DNA of 64,000 nucleotides from a virus (Duplodnaviria > Heunggongvirae > Uroviricota > Caudoviricetes > Crassvirales). The DNA lies in the IMG/VR virus record IMGVR_UViG_3300035495_000018, positions 24,104 to 88,103 of that record. One strand, written 5' to 3'. The notes under the pieces are model-generated. The model was not told the DNA's origin and made no database searches. It worked only from the letters and a program-made list of their open reading frames with translations. The position numbers were made by a program, and so were the translations under genes. This document shows, in pieces, positions 5,603 to 46,258 of this stretch (position 1 is its first letter; the number at the start of each line of letters is the position of its first letter).

Positions 5603-5715
5603 TTGATATTTACATGTCAGTTATATCATCATGATAATTGCAGTCAGGGTCATTGGTATCACCTACCTCACAATCCAATAACTCACAATAACCATTGCTA
5701 AAGAACTGACATCCT

Positions 5716-23788: not shown

Positions 23789-24721
23789 TTAGTTCCAAGG
23801 AGAAGAACTTTCAGATGTGCTGAAAGGAAGTTCATCAGTAGGAGCTGCCTCTGTGGTAGGAGTAAATGTAGTTGCTTCTACAGAATACTCATGTACAGGA
23901 GCTGCTGAATACTCAGTATTAAGAGTCCTACCATTAGCTGCTGCATTTTGAATCATCTCTTGAAGCTCTTTATCAAGAGTGCTATAGTTATTAGCTGAGT
24001 TTCGCAAGAATTTCCTTGTATATACAGCTTGATAAAGTCTTCCAGTTTCTGCATCAGTTCTTACACCAAGCATAATTTTAACCTTATTAGTAGGTTGGAA
24101 GCCAAGTGCATCTTTAATCTCAGAGAAGTCTCCTTTGAAGATTTTGTCAAGGCTATCAAACCTACATTCACATTCCTCAGGTTTAACTTTAGTATTGGGG
24201 ACCATTTTCTTAAGATTGGCATCCCATGTAGTTACACTAGGAATACAAAGATAAGCCTTTACAAACTCCATGAGTTCTTCTTCTCCTACATAAGCAGGCC
24301 TATAGTCCTTATCAATGTCAGCAGGACCATTAGAATAAACAGGAATAGCTTTAGCTGCAAGCTCTTCAGCTGTAGCCCATGCAGTCCTACCATACTTATC
24401 AATTACTTGAGTTTTACCTGATGTAGCACCTACTCTAGGCCTATTTTGCAAGAACAAAGCCATAGTTACAAGAGGCATTTCAAAGCCTACTTTCTCTGTG
24501 TCAGGTTGGAATACAATTTGAATTCTTGCATTACCATACTCATTACCATCACTATCTGTTACTTTACCAAGATAATTAGGAGCTTCATCCAATGTAGTAT
24601 TAAACAAAGACTCATGTTCTGCTTTATCAGGATTTACTGCTTTAATAAATACAGGAGCTACACCTACATATCTTTTAAACTCCTGAGCTTCTTTTGATTC
24701 TGAACCTTTAGCAATTGCCAT
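23789..24721 (-). CDS. Putative ssDNA-binding protein
   Basis: 310 aa, acidic C-terminal tail ending DELPF like the SSB DDDIPF tail; position in replication module. Confidence 0.35.
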   Translation of the reverse strand: MAIAKGSESKEAQEFKRYVGVAPVFIKAVNPDKAEHESLFNTTLDEAPNYLGKVTDSDGNEYGNARIQIVFQPDTEKVGFEMPLVTMALFLQNRPRVGATSGKTQVIDKYGRTAWATAEELAAKAIPVYSNGPADIDKDYRPAYVGEEELMEFVKAYLCIPSVTTWDANLKKMVPNTKVKPEECECRFDSLDKIFKGDFSEIKDALGFQPTNKVKIMLGVRTDAETGRLYQAVYTRKFLRNSANNYSTLDKELQEMIQNAAANGRTLNTEYSAAPVHEYSVEATTFTPTTEAAPTDELPFSTSESSSPWN

Positions 24722-33479: not shown

Positions 33480-33494
33480 ATAGATAGTCACTAA

Positions 33495-33568
33495 ATTCAC
33501 ATGATGGACTCGAACCATCTACTCTAAGCACCAAAAAACTTATGCTCTACCTAATGAGCTAATGTTAT
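33495..33568 (-). tRNA. Atypical tRNA: canonical D-arm (TA GCTC ATTAGGTA GAGC) and T-arm, but 8-10-nt anticodon loop (TTTTTTGGTG) and 5/7 acceptor pairs
   Basis: Manual fold. Confidence 0.4.
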
Positions 33569-33604
33569 TAGTATTGTAAGTGACTGTATATAACAAATGG
33601 CATG

Positions 33605-33724: not shown

Positions 33725-33743
33725 TTGATTTAGACACTTGAAT

Positions 33744-33816
33744 TTTCCAATAGTGGGGTCGAACCACTGCCATTAAAATTACAAATTTTACACTCTAACC
33801 TCTGAGTTAATCGGAT
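33744..33816 (-). tRNA. tRNA-Thr (anticodon TGT)
   Basis: Canonical cloverleaf: D-stem ACTC/GAGT, anticodon stem TAAAA/TTTTA, loop TTTGTAA, T-arm AGTGG TTCGACC CCACT; A1-A72 mismatch. Confidence 0.7.
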
Positions 33817-33958
33817 AATTAGTATTGTAAGTGTCTATAGTGAATGTAGGAGGTATTTCTCCTCCTACACCCTGTATGATACTTGGTTTACGAATTTATA
33901 GTCTATGATTTACGAAGTATGTATGAGTATAAATTGTAAGTATCATTAGTATTATGTA

Positions 33959-37555: not shown

Positions 37556-37592
37556 GCTAGAGGGACTCGAACCATCATCTAGAGTAAATATG
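37556..37592 (-). other. tRNA 3'-half fragment (T-arm + 3' acceptor strand, no D or anticodon arm)
   Basis: Minus sense GATGG TTCGAGT CCCTC TAGCTCC A directly downstream of tRNA-Arg(CCT). Confidence 0.4.
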
Positions 37593-37593
37593 G

Positions 37594-37665
37594 TGGTTGA
37601 TGGGAGACTCGAACTCCCAACCTGAAAATTAGGAATTTCCTGCTCTGTCCATTGAGCTAATCAAC
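37594..37665 (-). tRNA. tRNA-Arg (anticodon CCT)
   Basis: Acceptor GGTTGAT/ATCAACC, D GCTC-AATGGACA-GAGC, anticodon loop TTCCTAA, T-arm GGGAG TTCGAGT CTCCC. Confidence 0.75.
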
Positions 37666-38154
37666 CTTTGCTTTACCATAGTAAGTACTTTTTCCTCTTG
37701 GAGCATTCTTGTTCCTTGAACCAAAGTTCTCAGTTAATGAATGACAATTAGGACACAGTAGTTGTAAGTTATTCTCTATATTATTCTCAGAGTTTCCATC
37801 TATATGATGTACTTGAAGTGGTGTTTTATTTGTATATGGGTTTATTTCTCCCCATCCACAAATTTGACACTTGCCATTATATTTTTCCATTAGATAATTT
37901 CTTACAAAAGTACTACAAGAATAGCCTTTTGTGCCTGAAATTTCACCTAACTTCCATTTTCTAATGGTCTCTTTCCTTTTGTAAGAGAACTCACACTCTT
38001 TGTTACAAAACTTTCCATTACTAGAATATCTGGGATGGAAAGACTTGCCACAATTTTCACATACTACTGTCCCATTTCTAAATTCTTTGTTGGCTTTCAT
38101 ACGATTTATTTTTAATCGTACAAAGTTACAAAGAATATTTGAAATATACAACAA
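37657..38154 (-). CDS. HNH endonuclease
   Basis: VHHIDGN...NLQLLCPNCH plus N-terminal CxxC pairs. Confidence 0.7.
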   Translation of the reverse strand: MLYISNILCNFVRLKINRMKANKEFRNGTVVCENCGKSFHPRYSSNGKFCNKECEFSYKRKETIRKWKLGEISGTKGYSCSTFVRNYLMEKYNGKCQICGWGEINPYTNKTPLQVHHIDGNSENNIENNLQLLCPNCHSLTENFGSRNKNAPRGKSTYYGKAKVD

Positions 38155-38329
38155 ACTAGCTATTTATTTACTCTTGTTCTATCCCTTGAACTATGGGAGC
38201 ATAAAAAACAGTTTAGAATTAACTACTAAAGGGTCTTGAAATCCCAATATTCGGTAAATTCAAAGCACAAACCTTAATATCATCAGTTTATACTTACTTC
38301 ACTGTTTTGAATGACTAGTCTGATATTGG

Positions 38330-38403
38330 TGATTCAGATGAGACTCGAACTCATGACCCACAGTTTAGAAGACTGTTGCTCTGTCCAACTGAGCTACTGA
38401 ACC
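38330..38403 (-). tRNA. tRNA-Arg (anticodon TCT)
   Basis: Acceptor GGTTCAG/CTGAATC, D GCTC-AGTTGGACA-GAGC, anticodon stem ACAGT/ACTGT, loop CTTCTAA, T-arm ATGAG TTCGAGT CTCAT. Confidence 0.75.
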
Positions 38404-41630: not shown

Positions 41631-42671
41631 ATGTGGAATAAACTATCAATGGCTGATAGAGCCAAGTATATACAAATAGGGGTTCAGAATGGTATTACAG
41701 ACCTCAGTACTATAAGGAAAGCATATAATACTTATGCTAAAGGAGGATACCTTGATTGGAAGAAGAAGGTAAAAGAGTATAAAGGCATTATAATAGATGG
41801 AGATGATACTTATGACTACGAGAGTTACTACCATGATGACCCAGACAGAGCATGGAGACTACTAGATAAAAATAGTAGTGAGCACTTTCCTGATACCTAT
41901 AAGACAGCTACTCATCCTACTTTCTCAGATGAATCTAGATACTCAGGTAGTAAGAATAGGTATAACCCTAATGGAATTACTGGTGGACACTGGTACGGAG
42001 ATAATAGTTATGTAATGTCTCAGTCACAGTTTGATAATGATTGGGATACTGATAGGACTCTAGATTACCTAGGTCAAGAGGATAATCCACCATCATTATA
42101 TGCCCCTGATGGTTCTACTATGTTACATAGTGTAGATGTTACACCTCAGTCTTCAGCATTAAATAGAAGTAGAGAGGCAACTAGACCAAACACAGATTTC
42201 AGCAATGCACAAGATATGACTAAGACACAAAGGTTTGGTGCTACTTGGTTAGCAGGTGTACCATTTCTAGGCATTGACCCACATACTTGTCTCAATACTG
42301 TAACTGGCTTCTATGACCCAAATAATACAGTAGCTTCTAATCCTAATATGGTAGCTCACCCTGAGGACTATGGCTATAAAGAGATAAATCAAAGTGACGC
42401 TGTACCTGGTGACATTATTATATTATCAAACAAGAATAACCACCCTACTCATGCAGTGATGTTTGATAGTGTATCAGTTAAAAGTGGTATACATAATGGA
42501 TTCCCTTATGAGCCTGGAGATACTCTTGTAAACTACTCTAATGGAGGAAGGAGTAATGATAGCTACAGACTGCAAGGACCACTCAAAAGATTTGATGACC
42601 CAGATGCTGCTCATGGTGACTTCTCAGGGTCTCGCAGGTACTTCAGATTTACAGGAAAAGGAAAGAAATAA
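41631..42671 (+). CDS. Hypothetical protein, possibly CHAP/NlpC-P60-like peptidase
   Basis: 346 aa; candidate catalytic Cys (HTCLNTVTGFY) and His (NHPTHAVMF); weak. Confidence 0.3.
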   Translation: MWNKLSMADRAKYIQIGVQNGITDLSTIRKAYNTYAKGGYLDWKKKVKEYKGIIIDGDDTYDYESYYHDDPDRAWRLLDKNSSEHFPDTYKTATHPTFSDESRYSGSKNRYNPNGITGGHWYGDNSYVMSQSQFDNDWDTDRTLDYLGQEDNPPSLYAPDGSTMLHSVDVTPQSSALNRSREATRPNTDFSNAQDMTKTQRFGATWLAGVPFLGIDPHTCLNTVTGFYDPNNTVASNPNMVAHPEDYGYKEINQSDAVPGDIIILSNKNNHPTHAVMFDSVSVKSGIHNGFPYEPGDTLVNYSNGGRSNDSYRLQGPLKRFDDPDAAHGDFSGSRRYFRFTGKGKK

Positions 42672-42688
42672 AAATAATCCAGTAAAAA

Positions 42689-42720
42689 TTTGCATAATTC
42701 AAAATTTTTTCGTATCTTTG
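42689..42720 (+). promoter_or_regulatory. Bacteroidota-type promoter driving the tRNA array (-33 TTTG 42689-42692; -7 TAtcTTTG 42713-42720)
   Basis: 20-nt spacing, immediately upstream of first tRNA. Confidence 0.5.
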
Positions 42721-42736
42721 CACCGTCAATTGAAAT

Positions 42737-42808
42737 TGCTGCTTGGTGTAAAGGCTAACACACCAGTTTTTGGCACTGGGTTTAGAAGTTCGAGTCTTCT
42801 AGCAGCAA
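42737..42808 (+). tRNA. tRNA-Gln (TTG)
   Basis: Manual cloverleaf: acceptor TGCTGCT/AGCAGCA, anticodon loop TTTTGGC, T-arm AGAAG TTCGAGT CTTCT. Confidence 0.7.
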
Positions 42809-42816
42809 CACTGAAT

Positions 42817-42888
42817 GCCTCCTTAGTATAAGGGATAATGCAATAGTCTTCTAAACTATCAATCTAGGTTCGAGTCCTAGAGGAGGTA
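42817..42888 (+). tRNA. tRNA-Arg (TCT)
   Basis: Anticodon stem ATAGT/ACTAT, loop CTTCTAA, T-arm CTAGG TTCGAGT CCTAG. Confidence 0.7.
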
Positions 42889-42974
42889 CTTGCGGAGATG
42901 CGTTTTGTTTTTGTTTGTTGTTTAAAGTGATTGAAAGGAACCCACCCAACCTGTGAAGGTGCAAGTGGGTAAAT

Positions 42975-43047
42975 GGAGCCATCATCTAACAGGTTAGGAT
43001 GCCACTCTTTCAAGGTGGTAATCTGGGTTCAATCCCCAGTGGCTCTA
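42975..43047 (+). tRNA. tRNA-Glu (TTC)
   Basis: Anticodon stem CCACT/GGTGG, loop CTTTCAA, T-arm CTGGG TTCAATC CCCAG. Confidence 0.7.
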
Positions 43048-43056
43048 CTAGATATT

Positions 43057-43127
43057 GGGTGTGTGGTGTAATGGTTAGCATACAACACTGTCACTGTTGA
43101 GGTTGGGGTTCAAGTCCCCCACATCCA
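43057..43127 (+). tRNA. tRNA-Asp (GTC); T-stem appears to be 4 bp
   Basis: Anticodon stem CAACA/TGTTG, loop CTGTCAC, T-loop TTCAAGT. Confidence 0.6.
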
Positions 43128-43132
43128 GCTAT

Positions 43133-43219
43133 GGAAGTTTGGCAGAGTGGCTTAATGCACTGGTCTTGAAAACCAGCAGCCTGTAACAGGGTTCATGGGT
43201 TCAAATCCCATAGCTTCCT
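43133..43219 (+). tRNA. tRNA-Ser (TGA), type II
   Basis: Anticodon stem CTGGT/ACCAG, loop CTTGAAA, long variable arm, T-arm ATGGG TTCAAAT CCCAT. Confidence 0.7.
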
Positions 43220-43224
43220 CAAAT

Positions 43225-43307
43225 GGAGGGTAAAGCAGTGAGGTACTGCATCTGCCTGCTAAGCATGATGTACCTTAGGGTATTTGGTTCGAGTCTAATG
43301 CCCTCCT
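43225..43307 (+). tRNA. tRNA-Ser (GCT), type II (fold less certain)
   Basis: Acceptor GGAGGGT/GCCCTCC, loop CTGCTAA, variable arm TACC-ttag-GGTA. Confidence 0.5.
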
Positions 43308-43317
43308 CAATATATTT

Positions 43318-43390
43318 AGGGAAGTGGTCTAGTGGTTATGATGCATGCTTTGGGAGCATGAGGTCGAGAGTTCGAGTCTCTCTTTCCCTA
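43318..43390 (+). tRNA. tRNA-Pro (TGG)
   Basis: Anticodon stem CATGC/GCATG, loop TTTGGGA, T-arm GAGAG TTCGAGT CTCTC. Confidence 0.7.
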
Positions 43391-43396
43391 CTATAT

Positions 43397-43469
43397 GGGC
43401 TTTTAGTTAAGATGGCTATAACAATAGATTTGCACTCTATAGTCCTGGGTTCGAGTCCCAGTTAGTCCA
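43397..43469 (+). tRNA. tRNA-Ala (TGC); U-U mismatches at acceptor 6-67 and 7-66
   Basis: D GTTA/TAAC, anticodon stem ATAGA/TCTAT, loop TTTGCAC, T-arm CTGGG TTCGAGT CCCAG. Confidence 0.6.
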
Positions 43470-43477
43470 CTAAATAT

Positions 43478-43551
43478 TCCTTCTTAGCTCAGTTGGTTAG
43501 AGCAGTTGACTGTTAATCAAAAGGTCGTAGGTTCAAGTCCTACAGGGGGAG
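43478..43551 (+). tRNA. tRNA-Asn (GTT)
   Basis: D GCTC-AGTTGGTTA-GAGC, loop CTGTTAA, T-arm GTAGG TTCAAGT CCTAC. Confidence 0.7.
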
Positions 43552-43683
43552 CATAATAAAGAGAATAGTACTAGTGTAAGACTCAACGTAACTTAGTGGC
43601 TTTACATTGTATGTAAGTCTAGCCCACTTGAGTGTCGTATAACTCACCTTAGCTACAGAGGATGGTCAATGGTAGCATTATTC

Positions 43684-43754
43684 ATTGGTGTGGTATAATG
43701 GTATTACTCAGGTCTCCAAAACCTGCAATGGGAGTTCGATTCTCTCCACCTTTG
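43684..43754 (+). tRNA. tRNA-Trp (CCA); two U-U acceptor mismatches
   Basis: Anticodon stem CAGGT/ACCTG, loop CTCCAAA, T-arm GGGAG TTCGATT CTCTC. Confidence 0.55.
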
Positions 43755-43760
43755 CTTATT

Positions 43761-43834
43761 GGGCAGTTAACTCAGTTGGTTAGAGTACATGACTGATATT
43801 CATGAGGTCCTAAGTTCGAGCCTTAGATTGCCCA
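43761..43834 (+). tRNA. tRNA-Ile (GAT)
   Basis: Acceptor GGGCAGT/ATTGCCC, anticodon stem CATGA/TCATG, loop CTGATAT, T-arm CTAAG TTCGAGC CTTAG. Confidence 0.75.
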
Positions 43835-43836
43835 CT

Positions 43837-43906
43837 GTGTTAGTAGCTTATAGGTAAAGTGCTTGACTGTGAATCAAGAGAAGAGGGTTCGAGTCCCCCT
43901 AACACC
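43837..43906 (+). tRNA. tRNA-His (GTG)
   Basis: Acceptor GTGTTAG/CTAACAC, D GCTT/AAGT, anticodon stem CTTGA/TCAAG, loop CTGTGAA. Confidence 0.65.
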
Positions 43907-43914
43907 CTATATAT

Positions 43915-43988
43915 TGCTGAGTAGCTTAGACAGTAGAAGCACCTGCCTTATAAGCAGGAGATAGTGGGAGCATTACCCATCTCAGCTA
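43915..43988 (+). tRNA. tRNA-like gene with anticodon TAT (Ile-AUA-type) and non-canonical T-arm GTGGG AGCATTA CCCAT
   Basis: Canonical acceptor/D/anticodon geometry (D GCTT/AAGC, anticodon stem CCTGC/GCAGG, loop CTTATAA) but T-loop lacks TTC. Confidence 0.5.
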
Positions 43989-44248
43989 CTACTCTATGAT
44001 AATACAATTTCTAAATTATATTATTATGAAAAGAGCATGTAAATTACTGAAGAAGGCAGCTAAATGGTACTTTAAACAGATGGAAAGTGCATACTTCTGT
44101 CCTTCGGGAATGATTCCTATGAATTACATAGGATAATTCCCACCCTTCTTTTTGTGATAGTATATAATGTAGAAACATAAGATATAAGAGGATGCTGGTA
44201 GCCACTTCCTAGGAGGAACCTCTATAAAAACAGCTGTAGGCTACACAA

Positions 44249-44321
44249 CTTCCTATAGCTCAATTGGCAGAGCTTCTGACTCTTAATCAGAGGGTTCAGG
44301 GTTCAAGTCCCTGTGGGAAGA
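44249..44321 (+). tRNA. tRNA-Lys (CTT)
   Basis: Acceptor CTTCCTA/TGGGAAG, loop CTCTTAA, T-arm CAGGG TTCAAGT CCCTG. Confidence 0.7.
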
Positions 44322-44328
44322 CTATTAT

Positions 44329-44400
44329 TCTCCTATAGCTGAATGGTAAAGCTGCACTCTTTTAAAGTGAGGATTCTAGGTTCGAGTCCTAGTGGGAGAA
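44329..44400 (+). tRNA. tRNA-Lys (TTT)
   Basis: Loop CTTTTAA, T-arm CTAGG TTCGAGT CCTAG. Confidence 0.65.
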
Positions 44401-44409
44401 CTATTATAT

Positions 44410-44491
44410 GGGAATACTTTAATGCGGAGAATTAGTGCAGTCTGTAAAACTGTTGCCTCTGGCTAAATTGGTTCGACTCCATTTATTCCCA
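44410..44491 (+). tRNA. tRNA-Tyr (GTA), type II
   Basis: Perfect acceptor GGGAATA/TATTCCC, anticodon stem GCAGT/ACTGT, loop CTGTAAA, long variable arm. Confidence 0.65.
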
Positions 44492-44499
44492 CATTGATT

Positions 44500-44573
44500 G
44501 GAGACATAGCAAAGATGGTCTATGCGGAGGACTGAAAATCCTAAGATGTGAGGTTCGATACCCACTGTCTCCA
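44500..44573 (+). tRNA. tRNA-Phe (GAA); T-stem has a bulged A
   Basis: Perfect acceptor GGAGACA/TGTCTCC, loop CTGAAAA. Confidence 0.6.
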
Positions 44574-44577
44574 CTAT

Positions 44578-44665
44578 GCCCAAGTGGTGGAATAGGTAGA
44601 CACAATAGCCTTAGAAGCTATGTCGAAGTAATAGTAGAGTGTGGGTTCGAGTCCCACCTTGGGTA
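44578..44665 (+). tRNA. tRNA-Leu (TAG), type II
   Basis: Anticodon stem ATAGC/GCTAT, loop CTTAGAA, long variable arm, T-arm GTGGG TTCGAGT CCCAC. Confidence 0.7.
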
Positions 44666-44667
44666 CT

Positions 44668-45009
44668 ATGGAAAAGAAGTTTATATTCTATTTCAATGGG
44701 ATGATAGTCAAAGCTTCTATATCAGAATACAATACTAATATAGAAGATTCTTATAGATTCAAGAACATATCCAGTATGAGGGATATTCTGAGAGTGATAA
44801 GAGCTGAATCCCTAAATGATTCTACTGAGAGAGCAATAAGCAAAAGGTCTCTATTCAGTATGGTTAATGAATGGAGGGTACATAATTTATTGTATGCCCT
44901 TGGCATTAAGAGAGATAGGGTTAAAAGTGTTGATTTAAATATAGGTCAACCTTGGTATATTAAGGCAGTGTACACCCTTCTATCACCATTTTATTTGCAC
45001 TTTGTGTGA
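44668..45009 (+). CDS. hypothetical protein (start moved downstream of tRNA-Leu)
   Basis: ORF-track start 44641 lies inside the tRNA; in-frame ATG at 44668 (MEKKF...). Confidence 0.4.
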   Translation: MEKKFIFYFNGMIVKASISEYNTNIEDSYRFKNISSMRDILRVIRAESLNDSTERAISKRSLFSMVNEWRVHNLLYALGIKRDRVKSVDLNIGQPWYIKAVYTLLSPFYLHFV

Positions 45010-45026
45010 AAATACTTATCAATTTA

Positions 45027-45058
45027 TTTGGTAGTATGAAATATTTTACTTAACTTTG
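45027..45058 (+). promoter_or_regulatory. Bacteroidota-type promoter (-33 TTTG 45027-45030; -7 TAacTTTG 45051-45058)
   Basis: Consensus spacing, 22 nt upstream of 45080 ATG. Confidence 0.45.
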
Positions 45059-45079
45059 TAGCATCAAAAGAAAACAAGT

Positions 45080-45277
45080 ATGGCGAAGAATTTATCAAGC
45101 ATGGAGAAGAAGTGGCAGGCTGAAGAGGATGCTAGGACAATGGCTAGATACCAAGAGATAATGTCCGACTCTAAAAGAAAATCAGCAGCCATTAAGCAAG
45201 CCAGAACAGAAGCTTCAGCATTAGAGAAGAGGGCTAATGCAATGAAACTAGCTGCTGGTGGAAAGCTAAAGAAATAA
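45080..45277 (+). CDS. Small hypothetical protein (K/A-rich)
   Basis: 65-aa ORF behind promoter. Confidence 0.45.
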   Translation: MAKNLSSMEKKWQAEEDARTMARYQEIMSDSKRKSAAIKQARTEASALEKRANAMKLAAGGKLKK

Positions 45278-45285
45278 TAAGTGAT

Positions 45286-45358
45286 GCTTCCTTAGTTCAA
45301 TTGGCAGAGCAACTGTTTTGTAATCAGTCTGTTGTAAGTTCGAGTCTTACAGGAAGCT
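45286..45358 (+). tRNA. tRNA-Thr (TGT)
   Basis: Perfect acceptor GCTTCCT/AGGAAGC, loop TTTGTAA, T-arm GTAAG TTCGAGT CTTAC. Confidence 0.75.
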
Positions 45359-45363
45359 CTAAT

Positions 45364-45435
45364 GCAGGATTAGTATAAAGGTTATTATGCCAGTATTCCA
45401 AACTGGATATGAGGGTCCAATTCCCTCATCCTGCT
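45364..45435 (+). tRNA. tRNA-Gly (TCC)
   Basis: Perfect acceptor GCAGGAT/ATCCTGC, anticodon stem CCAGT/ACTGG, loop ATTCCAA, T-arm GAGGG TCCAATT CCCTC. Confidence 0.7.
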
Positions 45436-45441
45436 CAATTA

Positions 45442-45511
45442 TGTGGGGAGAGGAAGTCCTCCATCTAGTCTCATAAGCTAGATTCCGTGGGAGCATTACC
45501 CACCCCCGCAA
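45442..45511 (+). tRNA. tRNA-like gene with anticodon CAT (Met/Ile-lysidine type), same non-canonical T-arm GTGGG AGCATTA CCCAC, very short D-arm
   Basis: Anticodon stem CTAGT/GCTAG, loop CTCATAA; acceptor TGTGGGG/CCCCGCA. Confidence 0.45.
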
Positions 45512-45530
45512 CTAAATAAACAACAAAGAA

Positions 45531-45797
45531 ATGGAAGAGACAATTAAAGACAACACAATGGATATAGCTGCATCTATCAAGGATGCATTTGATGAGAAGT
45601 CAATCTTACCAAGATTCAGTTCCTATGCTGCTGTATCTAAGTTTAAATCAGTAAGAAGAGCTATTAGAAGAGGCCATGTAGATTTGTTCTTTGGCATTAT
45701 CTTCCCTAACAGACCCTTCAATAATAGGAAGGCTACTCCTGGTAGAGCTCAGAATTACACAAAGAAGAGGATGTATGGACAGTTCAAATTACAATGA
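45531..45797 (+). CDS. hypothetical protein
   Basis: 88-aa ORF. Confidence 0.4.
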   Translation: MEETIKDNTMDIAASIKDAFDEKSILPRFSSYAAVSKFKSVRRAIRRGHVDLFFGIIFPNRPFNNRKATPGRAQNYTKKRMYGQFKLQ

Positions 45798-46005
45798 TGA
45801 ACCTGTGTTCTACTGCAAGAGCTGTTTATCTTTAAAAGTAAAGACTGTAGCATCAGGGTTGAACCTTGACTACTGTGATGAGTGTGGCTCCACAGATATA
45901 GAACAATCACATATAGAGGATTGGAGAAAACTCTATAGAGATAGATATGGATTTGATTATCTTACAAAAGAATTAAATAATGGAAGAGAAAAACAAAGAC
46001 ACTAA
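45775..46005 (+). CDS. Small zinc-ribbon protein (start placed at internal Met)
   Basis: CKSC...CDEC motif. Confidence 0.4.
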   Translation: MDSSNYNDEPVFYCKSCLSLKVKTVASGLNLDYCDECGSTDIEQSHIEDWRKLYRDRYGFDYLTKELNNGREKQRH

Positions 46006-46258
46006 GAAGCTGAGTTATGAGGAGCTTGAAAAGGCTGCTGTTCAGCTTCAGCAGAGAGCTATGATGGCTGAGAACAAACTCAGAGGTATTGATTTTGCAT
46101 CAATCAGACTGAACTGGTTGTTCAAGGTACTTGAGAACAAAGAAACATTTAAGCCTGAGTTTGTAAGCAAGTGTGCTAATGAGGTACAGGAGATGCTTAC
46201 AATTGATTCAGAGGATACTGAAGGTACCACTGATGAACAGGCTGGTGAGGCAGACTAA
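45980..46258 (+). CDS. hypothetical acidic protein
   Basis: 92-aa ORF. Confidence 0.4.
   Translation: MEEKNKDTKKLSYEELEKAAVQLQQRAMMAENKLRGIDFASIRLNWLFKVLENKETFKPEFVSKCANEVQEMLTIDSEDTEGTTDEQAGEAD

Follow-up and report, generated by a model that had tools for sequence, protein, structure and literature searches.

An alternative, probably compensated elbow in two tRNAs of a crAss-like phage and in accessory tRNA arrays

T54, Psi55, A58 and G18 are regarded as near-universal in the tRNAs of cellular ribosomes, and eukaryotic initiator tRNAs have A60 in place of a pyrimidine. The eukaryotic cytoplasmic initiator also carries A54, in an A54-A58 pair (PMC7912444), and the non-proteinogenic tRNA-Gly of staphylococci, which lacks G18, G19, U55 and C56, binds EF-Tu weakly and is diverted from translation (PMC4574755). 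Compact architectures, with one linker nucleotide, a small D-loop and an anticodon stem of six base pairs (bp), are found in tRNAPyl and mitochondrial tRNA-Ser(UCN) (PMC7609411). Accessory tRNAs can be packed densely in the tRNA array units of bacteria, plasmids and phages, often with encoded CCA ends (PMC4758250, PMC5966550). Here we analyse two tRNA genes in a stretch of 64,000 nucleotides (nt) from a crAss-like phage (IMG/VR record IMGVR_UViG_3300035495_000018, positions 24,104 to 88,103; hereafter the window). These are a tRNA-Ile(UAU) at 43915-43988 and a tRNA-Met(CAU) at 45442-45511, both on the plus strand. A reading made from the letters of the window (the sequence-only reading) had described two tRNA genes with anticodons UAU and CAU and the same odd T-arm, and both lie where it placed them. 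We consider both loci likely to be working phage decoders with an alternative, compensated elbow, because relaxed ARAGORN and thermodynamic folds, and for tRNA-Ile(UAU) also Rfam, agree, because pairs and loops covary and because the phage has a codon demand that they could serve.

Two tRNA genes with one T-arm

The window contains exactly two copies of the 16-mer GTGGGAGCATTACCCA, both on the plus strand (43964-43979 and 45487-45502), whereas about 0.02 matches would be expected by chance even with two mismatches allowed. The T-arms to which it belongs read GTGGG/AGCATTA/CCCAT in tRNA-Ile(UAU) (43964-43980), giving A54 G55 C56 A57 U58 U59 A60, and GTGGG/AGCATTA/CCCAC in tRNA-Met(CAU) (45487-45503). 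Together with A18 and G19 of the D-loop, both elbows thus combine A18 G19 with A54 G55 C56, U58 and A60, and keep only G19 and C56 of the canonical nucleotides. The sequence-only reading had held that the arm lacks T54-Psi55-C56; T54 and U55 are indeed absent, but C56 is retained. A T-loop in another register was considered and ruled out, as ARAGORN, Rfam and RNAfold all place AGCATTA as a 7-nt loop on a 5-bp stem.

Compared with canonical tRNAs (Rfam RF00005, including the orthologues of Bacteroides phage crAss001), the two genes have the same cloverleaf, the same 7-nt anticodon loop with U33 and A37, a 5-bp T-stem with G53-C61, the G19-C56 pair, a syntenic place in the array and presumably the same role in codon supply. 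They differ by T54 to A54, U55 to G55, A58 to U58, Y60 to A60 and G18 to A18. The eukaryotic initiator shares A54 instead of T, but keeps Psi55, A58 and G18, whereas the alternative elbow has G55, U58 and A18 and occurs on many elongator specificities.

The tRNA-Ile(UAU) gene comprises 74 nt including the discriminator A73. Its acceptor stem (43915-43921 with 43981-43987), which had been taken for canonical, instead consists of U1.U72 and six Watson-Crick pairs. The D-stem (43924-43927 with 43937-43940) closes a D-loop, AGACAGTAG (43928-43936), that contains A18 G19 and no GG; the anticodon stem (43942-43946 with 43954-43958) carries the 7-nt loop CTTATAA with U33, A37 and the anticodon TAT at 43949-43951, and the variable loop occupies 43959-43963. 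Rfam RF00005 scores the gene at 48.7 bits against a gathering threshold of 29, with poor columns only at 1:72 and in the T-loop. Relaxed ARAGORN at 95% thresholds (-ps95) calls it tRNA-Ile(tat), and the cloverleaf is its minimum-free-energy structure.

The tRNA-Met(CAU) gene is compact and initiator-like, with 70 nt including A73. Its acceptor stem (45442-45448 with 45504-45510) consists of U1-A72, G2-C71, U3.G70 and four G-C pairs, and is followed by a 1-nt linker (45449), a D-stem GAGG/CCTC with A11-U24 (45450-45453 with 45458-45461) and the 4-nt D-loop AAGT (45454-45457). The very short D-arm noted from sequence is therefore real; the anticodon stem, described as 5 bp, has six, UCUAGU/GCUAGA (45464-45469 with 45477-45482), around the loop CTCATAA and the anticodon CAT at 45472-45474. 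A 4-nt variable loop (45483-45486) leads to the T-arm. Relaxed ARAGORN at 85% thresholds (-ps85) reports tRNA-Met(cat), in an acceptor register poorer than that of the sequence-only reading, and the minimum-free-energy structure is again the cloverleaf (z = -4.1). Both genes encode up to C74 (at 43989 and 45512), as do several neighbours in the array.

The two genes belong to an array of 23 tRNA genes on the plus strand (42737-45512), delimited with default and relaxed ARAGORN, Rfam and synteny. The array is syntenic with those of crAss001 (MH675552) and Kehishuvirus tikkala (OQ198717), and the window comes from a crAss-like phage. Against INPHARED phages, megablast of the array gave no match; the link to crAss001 and Kehishuvirus was made only by distant blastn. 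As the sequence-only reading observed, each gene is the last tRNA of its sub-cluster: tRNA-Ile(UAU) follows tRNA-His on the same strand after 7 nt, a place where crAss001 also has a tRNA-Ile(UAU), and tRNA-Met(CAU) follows the tRNA-Gly of a Thr-Gly pair after 5 nt and is the last tRNA before the protein genes. Default ARAGORN finds 21 tRNAs in the window and misses both genes.

In window open reading frames (ORFs) of at least 150 amino acids, ATA makes up 329 of 907 Ile codons (36%; 25 per 1000 codons), so that tRNA-Ile(UAU) has an obvious decoding job. Default ARAGORN, relaxed ARAGORN and a custom scan found no second UAU or CAU tRNA in the window, and tRNA-Met(CAU) is the only AUG reader found among its tRNA genes. 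The proposal of an AUA/AUG decoding pair is thus plausible. Both tRNAs would be transcribed within the phage array and processed like their neighbours; tRNA-Ile(UAU), presumably charged with isoleucine, would supply AUA decoding, and the compact tRNA-Met(CAU), with its initiator-type features, would be charged with methionine and used on the ribosome. A promoter and terminator scan gave background levels, with no plus-strand terminator after either gene, and the custom scan returned no third alternative-elbow tRNA in the window.

Coupled changes in the D- and T-loops

To sample relatives of tRNA-Ile(UAU) we used a pattern, CTTATAAGNNNGAGANAGTGGG, that covers only the anticodon and variable loops plus the 5' strand of the T-stem and is blind to the D- and T-loops. 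Run on viral and metagenome collections, it yielded 31 distinct relatives; to judge by contig names, their sources include the human gut, the rumen, and marine and freshwater habitats. The loop AGCATTA was seen in 13 distinct sequences, fetched independently from about 20 loci, and is always combined with D-loops such as AGACAGTAA. Other T-loops have matching partners as well: ATCGTTA occurs with AGACGGTAA, TGCAAGT and GGCAGTA with D-loops of the form ...TAGTA..., and TTCAACT, TTCAAGC and similar loops with ...GG... D-loops. An A-G D-loop is found in 13/13 rows with G55, and GG in 14/15 rows with U55 (p = 7e-7). A gene 83% identical in the megaphage record LR745206 has the intermediate state ATCGTTA/GG, and in crAss001 both the tRNA-Ile(UAU) and the last tRNA-Met have GG D-loops, with the T-loops TTCAAAT and TTCGAGT.

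In an alignment of eight UAU sequences (A1), 95% of cells are paired and ten pairs have changed on both sides, including four acceptor pairs and five anticodon-stem pairs. None of 500 shuffles reached the observed score, and pairing fell to 34-51% in slid controls. G19:C56, the anticodon and the 7-nt anticodon loop are invariant. The 1:72 position is never G-C in this family, being U.U in the alternative-elbow group, U-A in L207 (L numbers denote sampled loci), AxC in L208 and G.U in crAss001; U72-A73-C74 is kept among the relatives with AGCATTA, and two further members have C or A at position 72. Sampling anchored on the 88-amino-acid ORF downstream of tRNA-Met(CAU) gave five loci, with arrays too diverged to hold either orthologue.

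These relatives bear on whether the genes are degenerate pseudogenes or products of a local assembly or sequencing error. Default tRNA finders fail on both, and related cultured phages have a normal loop at the same positions; the sequence-only reading had likewise tied normal TTCRANT loops in orthologues to an assembly error. Such orthologues do exist (crAss001, L208/L209, L211/L227/L229), but the error does not follow from them. The same loop recurs in the many independent UAU loci on compensatory stems, it is present in two copies both in the window and in L042, and the D-loop changes are coordinated with those of the T-loop. Because compensatory changes appear on so many independent contigs, we regard an artefact or decayed genes as excluded for practical purposes.

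The T-arm extends well beyond isoleucine tRNAs. An exact-match scan of IMG/VR for GTGGGAGCATTACCCA returned 78 loci. Most matches lie in what look like tRNA genes, whose anticodons are varied (Lys, Ala, Met, Cys, Asp, Pro, Thr and others) and which commonly encode a CCA end. In the same loci AGCATTA also sits on at least eight further compensating T-stems (GTAGG/CCTAC, ACAGG/CCTGT, ACGGG/CCCGT, GTCGG/CCGAC, CACGG/CCGTG, CATGG/CCATG, ACTGG/CCAGT and CGCGG/CCGCG). The loop is used with more than 30 anticodons, many of the genes ending in an encoded CCA, and is the commonest form of a class with the consensus G52 G53 - A54 G55 C56 R57 U58 U59 A60 - C61 C62. Most of the 120 matches to GTGGGAGCATTACCCA in genome contigs were set aside, as they lack tRNA-like context and have near-identical flanks resembling conserved coding sequence, possibly a glycogen-synthase motif. 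A scan with the 15-mer GAGGAAGTCCTCCAT gave mostly chance matches, in loci with too few tRNAs to estimate prevalence in random viral contigs.

The exact identity of 16 nt between two genes that otherwise differ could also reflect recent gene conversion or patch recombination within the window. However, relatives with canonical loops already have the T-stem GTGGG/CCCAY in both families (UAU: L208 and crAss001; CAU: L227), so conversion is unnecessary; ancestral stems and the favoured loop of the class suffice. Moreover, UAU orthologues elsewhere carry AGCATTA without a CAU partner, and the CAU tRNA of L009 is canonical. We therefore consider a recent exchange between the two genes unlikely.

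For the class as a whole, relaxed ARAGORN made 1017 unique calls on 200 loci and the window. In the 810 calls that combine a 7-nt T-loop with C56, U55 accompanies GG in 417 and AG in 20, and G55 accompanies GG in 38 and AG in 272 (Fisher p = 4e-133, a value that is only indicative and overstates independence, because the loci were seeded on GTGGGAGCATTACCCA and the relaxed calls include related sequences and some false positives). Typical D-loops are AATGGTA with U55 and AATAGTA with G55; a change from U55 to G55 is therefore matched by one from G18 to A18, and G19-C56 is retained. Positions 54:58 are T-A in 588 calls, A-T in 129, C-A in 23 and G-G in 16, and position 60 follows them, with A60 in 116/129 of the A54-T58 loops and T60 in 507/588 of the T54-A58 loops. 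All four combinations of the two switches occur, as TTC, TGC, ATC and AGC loops, also among the orthologues of the two window genes, which themselves carry both switches. The UAU and CAU families thereby supply independent evidence of the coupling. Watson-Crick pairing of Y20 with G55 as an alternative contact between the loops was rejected because the composition of position 20 is the same in both classes.

Default ARAGORN recovers 77% of the relaxed calls of TTC type and 74% of TGC type but only 32% of AGC type, so that the alternative class is under-annotated. Rarer T-loops, GGCGGTA/GGCGGAA (G54...G58) and CGCGATA (C54...A58), recur in the same arrays (for example, L019, L036, L045 and L057), and default ARAGORN finds only 12-33% of them.

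Together, these couplings suggest how the elbow may be built. A18.G55 would take the place of G18.Psi55, plausibly as a sheared A.G pair, and the reverse-Hoogsteen pair T54-A58 would be swapped to A54-U58, with position 60 becoming A. The G19-C56 pair would remain, and with it an outer face that RNase P, the ribosomal L1 stalk, L5 and T-boxes contact (PMC4810234). Because G19-C56 is kept and the 18:55 and 54:58 changes compensate, we expect the tRNAs to keep their L-shape and the universal docking surface. TrmA, TruB and TrmH lack their usual target nucleotides here (U54, U55 and G18, respectively), and the tRNAs would accordingly carry no m5U54, Psi55 or Gm18. Contrary to the sequence-only reading, the T-loop appears not to be defective; it has changed in step with the D-loop.

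The same reading had raised decoy or regulatory tRNAs, and nothing points to that role. Such tRNAs would use a weak T-loop to avoid EF-Tu and the ribosome, as the staphylococcal cell-wall tRNA-Gly does. The departure from T54-Psi55 recalls that species, in which G18 and U55 are also naturally absent, and the acceptor ends are weak (U1.U72 in tRNA-Ile(UAU), U1-A72 in tRNA-Met(CAU)). Unlike the staphylococcal species, however, the alternative elbow retains G19-C56, shows covariation between positions 18 and 55 and is found on tRNAs of every amino-acid specificity. The anticodon loops have the canonical form, and neither anticodon varies within its family; no other UAU or CAU tRNA was found in the window, where AUA makes up more than a third of Ile codons; and the same elbow serves the more than 30 anticodons mentioned above, including nearly complete sets. 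On these grounds a role outside translation appears very improbable.

A compact tRNA-Met(CAU) family

The anticodon arm UCUAGU-CUCAUAA-GCUAGA of tRNA-Met(CAU) is common to about 20 diverse phage contigs and to the annotated tRNA-Met of the cultured Klebsiella phage KP13-16 (OP617741, L206; tRNA genes at 2476-2552 and 1504-1580), in which the T-loop is TGCGATA and the D-loop lacks GG. The tRNA-Asp of KP13-16 combines ATCGTAA with GG. This cultured enterobacterial phage offers an experimentally tractable system for alternative elbows.

A compact subfamily was aligned as eight distinct sequences (A2): the window, which is identical to L042, and L039, L224, L211, L227, L229, L101 and L178, of which L101 and L178 come from Verrucomicrobiota arrays. 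The shared layout comprises a 7-bp acceptor stem, a 1-nt linker, a 4-bp D-stem, a 4-nt D-loop, a 6-bp anticodon stem and a 4-nt variable loop. In A2, 97% of cells are paired and 14 pairs have changed on both sides, a result reached by 0/500 shuffles; slid controls of A1 and A2 overall were 33-51% paired. Among the doubly changed pairs are two of the D-stem and the sixth of the anticodon stem, which covaries as UA in six sequences, AU in one and CG in one. A11-U24 (8/8), U31.G39, G19-C56, the CAU anticodon and the 7-nt anticodon loop are invariant. The elbow takes three matched states: TGGT with TTCGATT/TTCAATT, CAGT with TGCGACT/TGCGACC, and AAGT with AGCATTA/AGCGTTA.

The one-nucleotide linker, small D-loop, 6-bp anticodon stem and short variable loop are shared with tRNAPyl and mammalian mitochondrial tRNA-Ser(UCN). 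Those tRNAs differ in anticodon (CUA/UGA rather than CAU) and have a variable loop of 3 nt, against 4 nt in the compact family. The tRNAPyl of M. barkeri has no G19-C56 pair, whereas the compact family keeps it, is found in phages and accessory bacterial arrays, and has no dedicated synthetase evident.

With bacterial initiator tRNA-fMet the window gene shares CAU, A73, G2-C71 and A11-U24. In most members of the CAU family, positions 1 and 72 are mismatched (CxA or AxA) or form U1-A72, and the 3' end is ...GCAAC; in the compact subfamily the mismatch is CxA in L224 and L101 and AxA in L227 and L229. At 3:70 the window gene has U.G, whereas 5/8 sequences have C-G; A73 is present in 6/8, and G2-C71 is present. 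E. coli tRNAfMet has A11-U24, G2-C71, C3-G70 and A73, and its 3' acceptor strand, CCCCGCA-A, is the same as in tRNA-Met(CAU). The 1:72 pattern, A11-U24, G2-C71, A73 and the 3' acceptor strand together suggest an initiator identity for the compact family.

The window gene is the positional orthologue of the last tRNA-Met of crAss001, and their 3' ends, ...CGCAACTAAAT, match. That tRNA-Met (MH675552, 5407-5494), like the last one of Kehishuvirus tikkala (5613-5700), is 87-88 nt long, with C1xA72 and a long variable arm, a third type of structure at the site filled in the window by the compact 70-nt gene.

Several points weigh against reading the two loci as working decoders and tRNA-Met(CAU) as an initiator. 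The 1:72 position of tRNA-Ile(UAU) is U.U, or else its acceptor stem has only 6 bp, depending on whether the gene starts at U1 or G2. One UAU relative, L355, combines U55 with an A-G D-loop as the sole exception in that family, and the wider loop association was, as stated, measured on a seeded sample. Rfam RF00005 gives no hit to tRNA-Met(CAU) even at E<=10 when a 94-nt stretch is searched. This tRNA also lacks the three G-C pairs of the bacterial initiator anticodon stem (A-U, G-C and U.G adjoin its loop) and has a weak U1-A72 pair, not the initiator-type C1xA72 mismatch, so that its initiator role is uncertain; U3.G70 instead of C3-G70, U31.G39, the compact core and the alternative elbow further set it apart from tRNA-fMet.

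Accessory arrays and the purpose of the elbow

In crAss-like arrays the alternative elbow is restricted to the UAU gene and sometimes the CAU gene, and all other tRNAs are canonical. A different distribution is found in accessory arrays of contigs from Verrucomicrobiota genomes (including an Akkermansia metagenome-assembled genome) and of some phage contigs, in which about 55-90% of calls per locus have the alternative elbow. The Verrucomicrobiota arrays have encoded CCA ends and canonical housekeeping copies alongside (L092 has Gly-GCC of both kinds), their flanking genes are ordinary (ZnuA and a solute symporter), and they fit the description of tRNA array units. In the survey of such arrays (PMC4758250) the terms T-loop and D-loop are absent, and we found no description of an alternative elbow as a shared property. 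Full-text searches by sequence and by concept, in a collection with few subscription journals, likewise turned up no account of AGCAUUA as a T-loop, of A18 covarying with G55, or of phage or array tRNAs with alternative elbows.

Other unusual tRNAs occur in these arrays and in further sampled loci. A long variable arm defines bacterial tRNA-Leu, and short tRNA-Leu genes of 73-76 nt (CAG, UAA and CAA) without this arm are present in L101 (6257-6506) and L126 (320-470). Conversely, UAU-anticodon tRNAs of 89-93 nt (L064 4016-4108, L126 135-226, L059 288-379, L067 1936-2026 and L076 957-1045) are type-II-like, with a long variable arm containing a conserved CUAGAU and AGCGTTA or TTCGATT loops. An RNA ligase (PF09414 with a PHA02142 OB domain) is encoded in or next to the array of L101 (6769-7791, plus strand), and a Ro60/TROVE-vWA protein in or next to that of L126 (1802-3640, minus strand); these are RNA repair and quality-control genes.

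Why phages would use this design is a separate question from whether the tRNAs work. We favour the view that a compensated variant is tolerated and has been passed on and traded among the tRNA arrays of phages, because orthologues switch states freely and the design is confined to one or two genes in crAss-like phages. Ranked second is an advantage from not needing, or not being seen by, host factors that read the T- and D-loops: the elbow would remove what a tRNase or toxin directed at the T- or D-loop, or quality control by TruB, TrmA and TrmH, reads, and would still fit RNase P and the ribosome. This account competes with the tolerated variant as an explanation of purpose, not with the reading of both loci as working tRNAs. 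U54, U55 and G18 are removed together while G19-C56 stays, and T-loop-cleaving toxins do exist, such as a Burkholderia CdiA-CT that cuts between T54 and Psi55. That whole accessory arrays use the design, with a canonical housekeeping isoacceptor beside it and with the RNA ligase and Ro60/TROVE genes close by, keeps such a role alive, and one published abstract terms tRNA array units a putative antidefence system (PMC12803027). However, only one or two of more than 20 tRNAs in crAss-like arrays have the elbow, close orthologues are canonical (crAss001, L208 and L211), and no elbow-directed factor was identified in any locus. Phage T5, the classic carrier of anti-defence tRNAs, has canonical loops throughout. 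Adaptive evasion is thus possible, although we rather doubt it.

More speculative still, the alternative-elbow tRNAs might form a structurally orthogonal class that docks on RNase P and the ribosome via G19-C56 and is invisible or resistant to canonical T- and D-loop readers such as TruB, TrmA, TrmH and elbow-directed tRNases, joined by a compact, tRNAPyl-like family of initiator tRNA-Met in crAss-like phages and Verrucomicrobiota-contig arrays. If so, a phage or mobile element could keep translating during an attack on the canonical tRNAs of the host or under limited maturation capacity.

The remainder of the window array is of ordinary elbow type. A tRNA-Ser(GCU) (43225-43308, plus strand; a weak 31.4 bits in Rfam) and a tRNA-Phe(GAA) (44500-44574, plus strand; 57.2 bits, with an 8-nt or mismatched T-loop, TTCGATAC) escape default ARAGORN; the elbows of both are canonical (GG/TTC). 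Non-tRNA gaps lie at 43553-43683 and 43990-44248. The second contains a 46-amino-acid ORF (43996-44136), and a 122-amino-acid ORF lies at 44641-45009; neither has a Pfam match, and the corresponding places in crAss001 hold other ORFs (Gp6, DpsA-like and HNH). Pfam scans of the small ORFs in and around the array (41631-46255) gave no family and no array-linked enzyme tied to the odd tRNAs. Outside the array, on the minus strand, are well-formed tRNA-Arg genes (CCU and UCU) with encoded CCA at 37591-37666 and 38327-38403; AGA, which the phage tRNA-Arg(UCU) genes serve, makes up 30 per 1000 codons in the same long ORFs. Two tRNA-like genes with poorly paired acceptor stems lie at 33494-33569 and 33743-33817 (minus strand). 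The former has an 8-nt anticodon loop with the anticodon reported as 'tttg', and could be a degenerate copy or a frameshift- or suppressor-type tRNA.

The role of these phage tRNAs is ordinary; their rewired elbow and the tRNAPyl-like compact tRNA-Met are unusual in structure. The elbow represents a widespread natural alternative in which T54, Psi55, A58 and G18 change coordinately and G19-C56 is kept. It is thus a natural experiment in what the elbow needs and in what the T54, Psi55 and Gm18 modifications do, with tertiary covariation at 18:55 and 54:58 strong enough to guide structure work. The compact, possibly orthogonal scaffolds may also be of use for engineering. For phage biology, the under-calling of the alternative class by default finders means that phage tRNA repertoires and analyses of codon supply are incomplete. 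By such finders, this crAss-like phage would seem to have no AUA decoder and to lack its only CAU tRNA.

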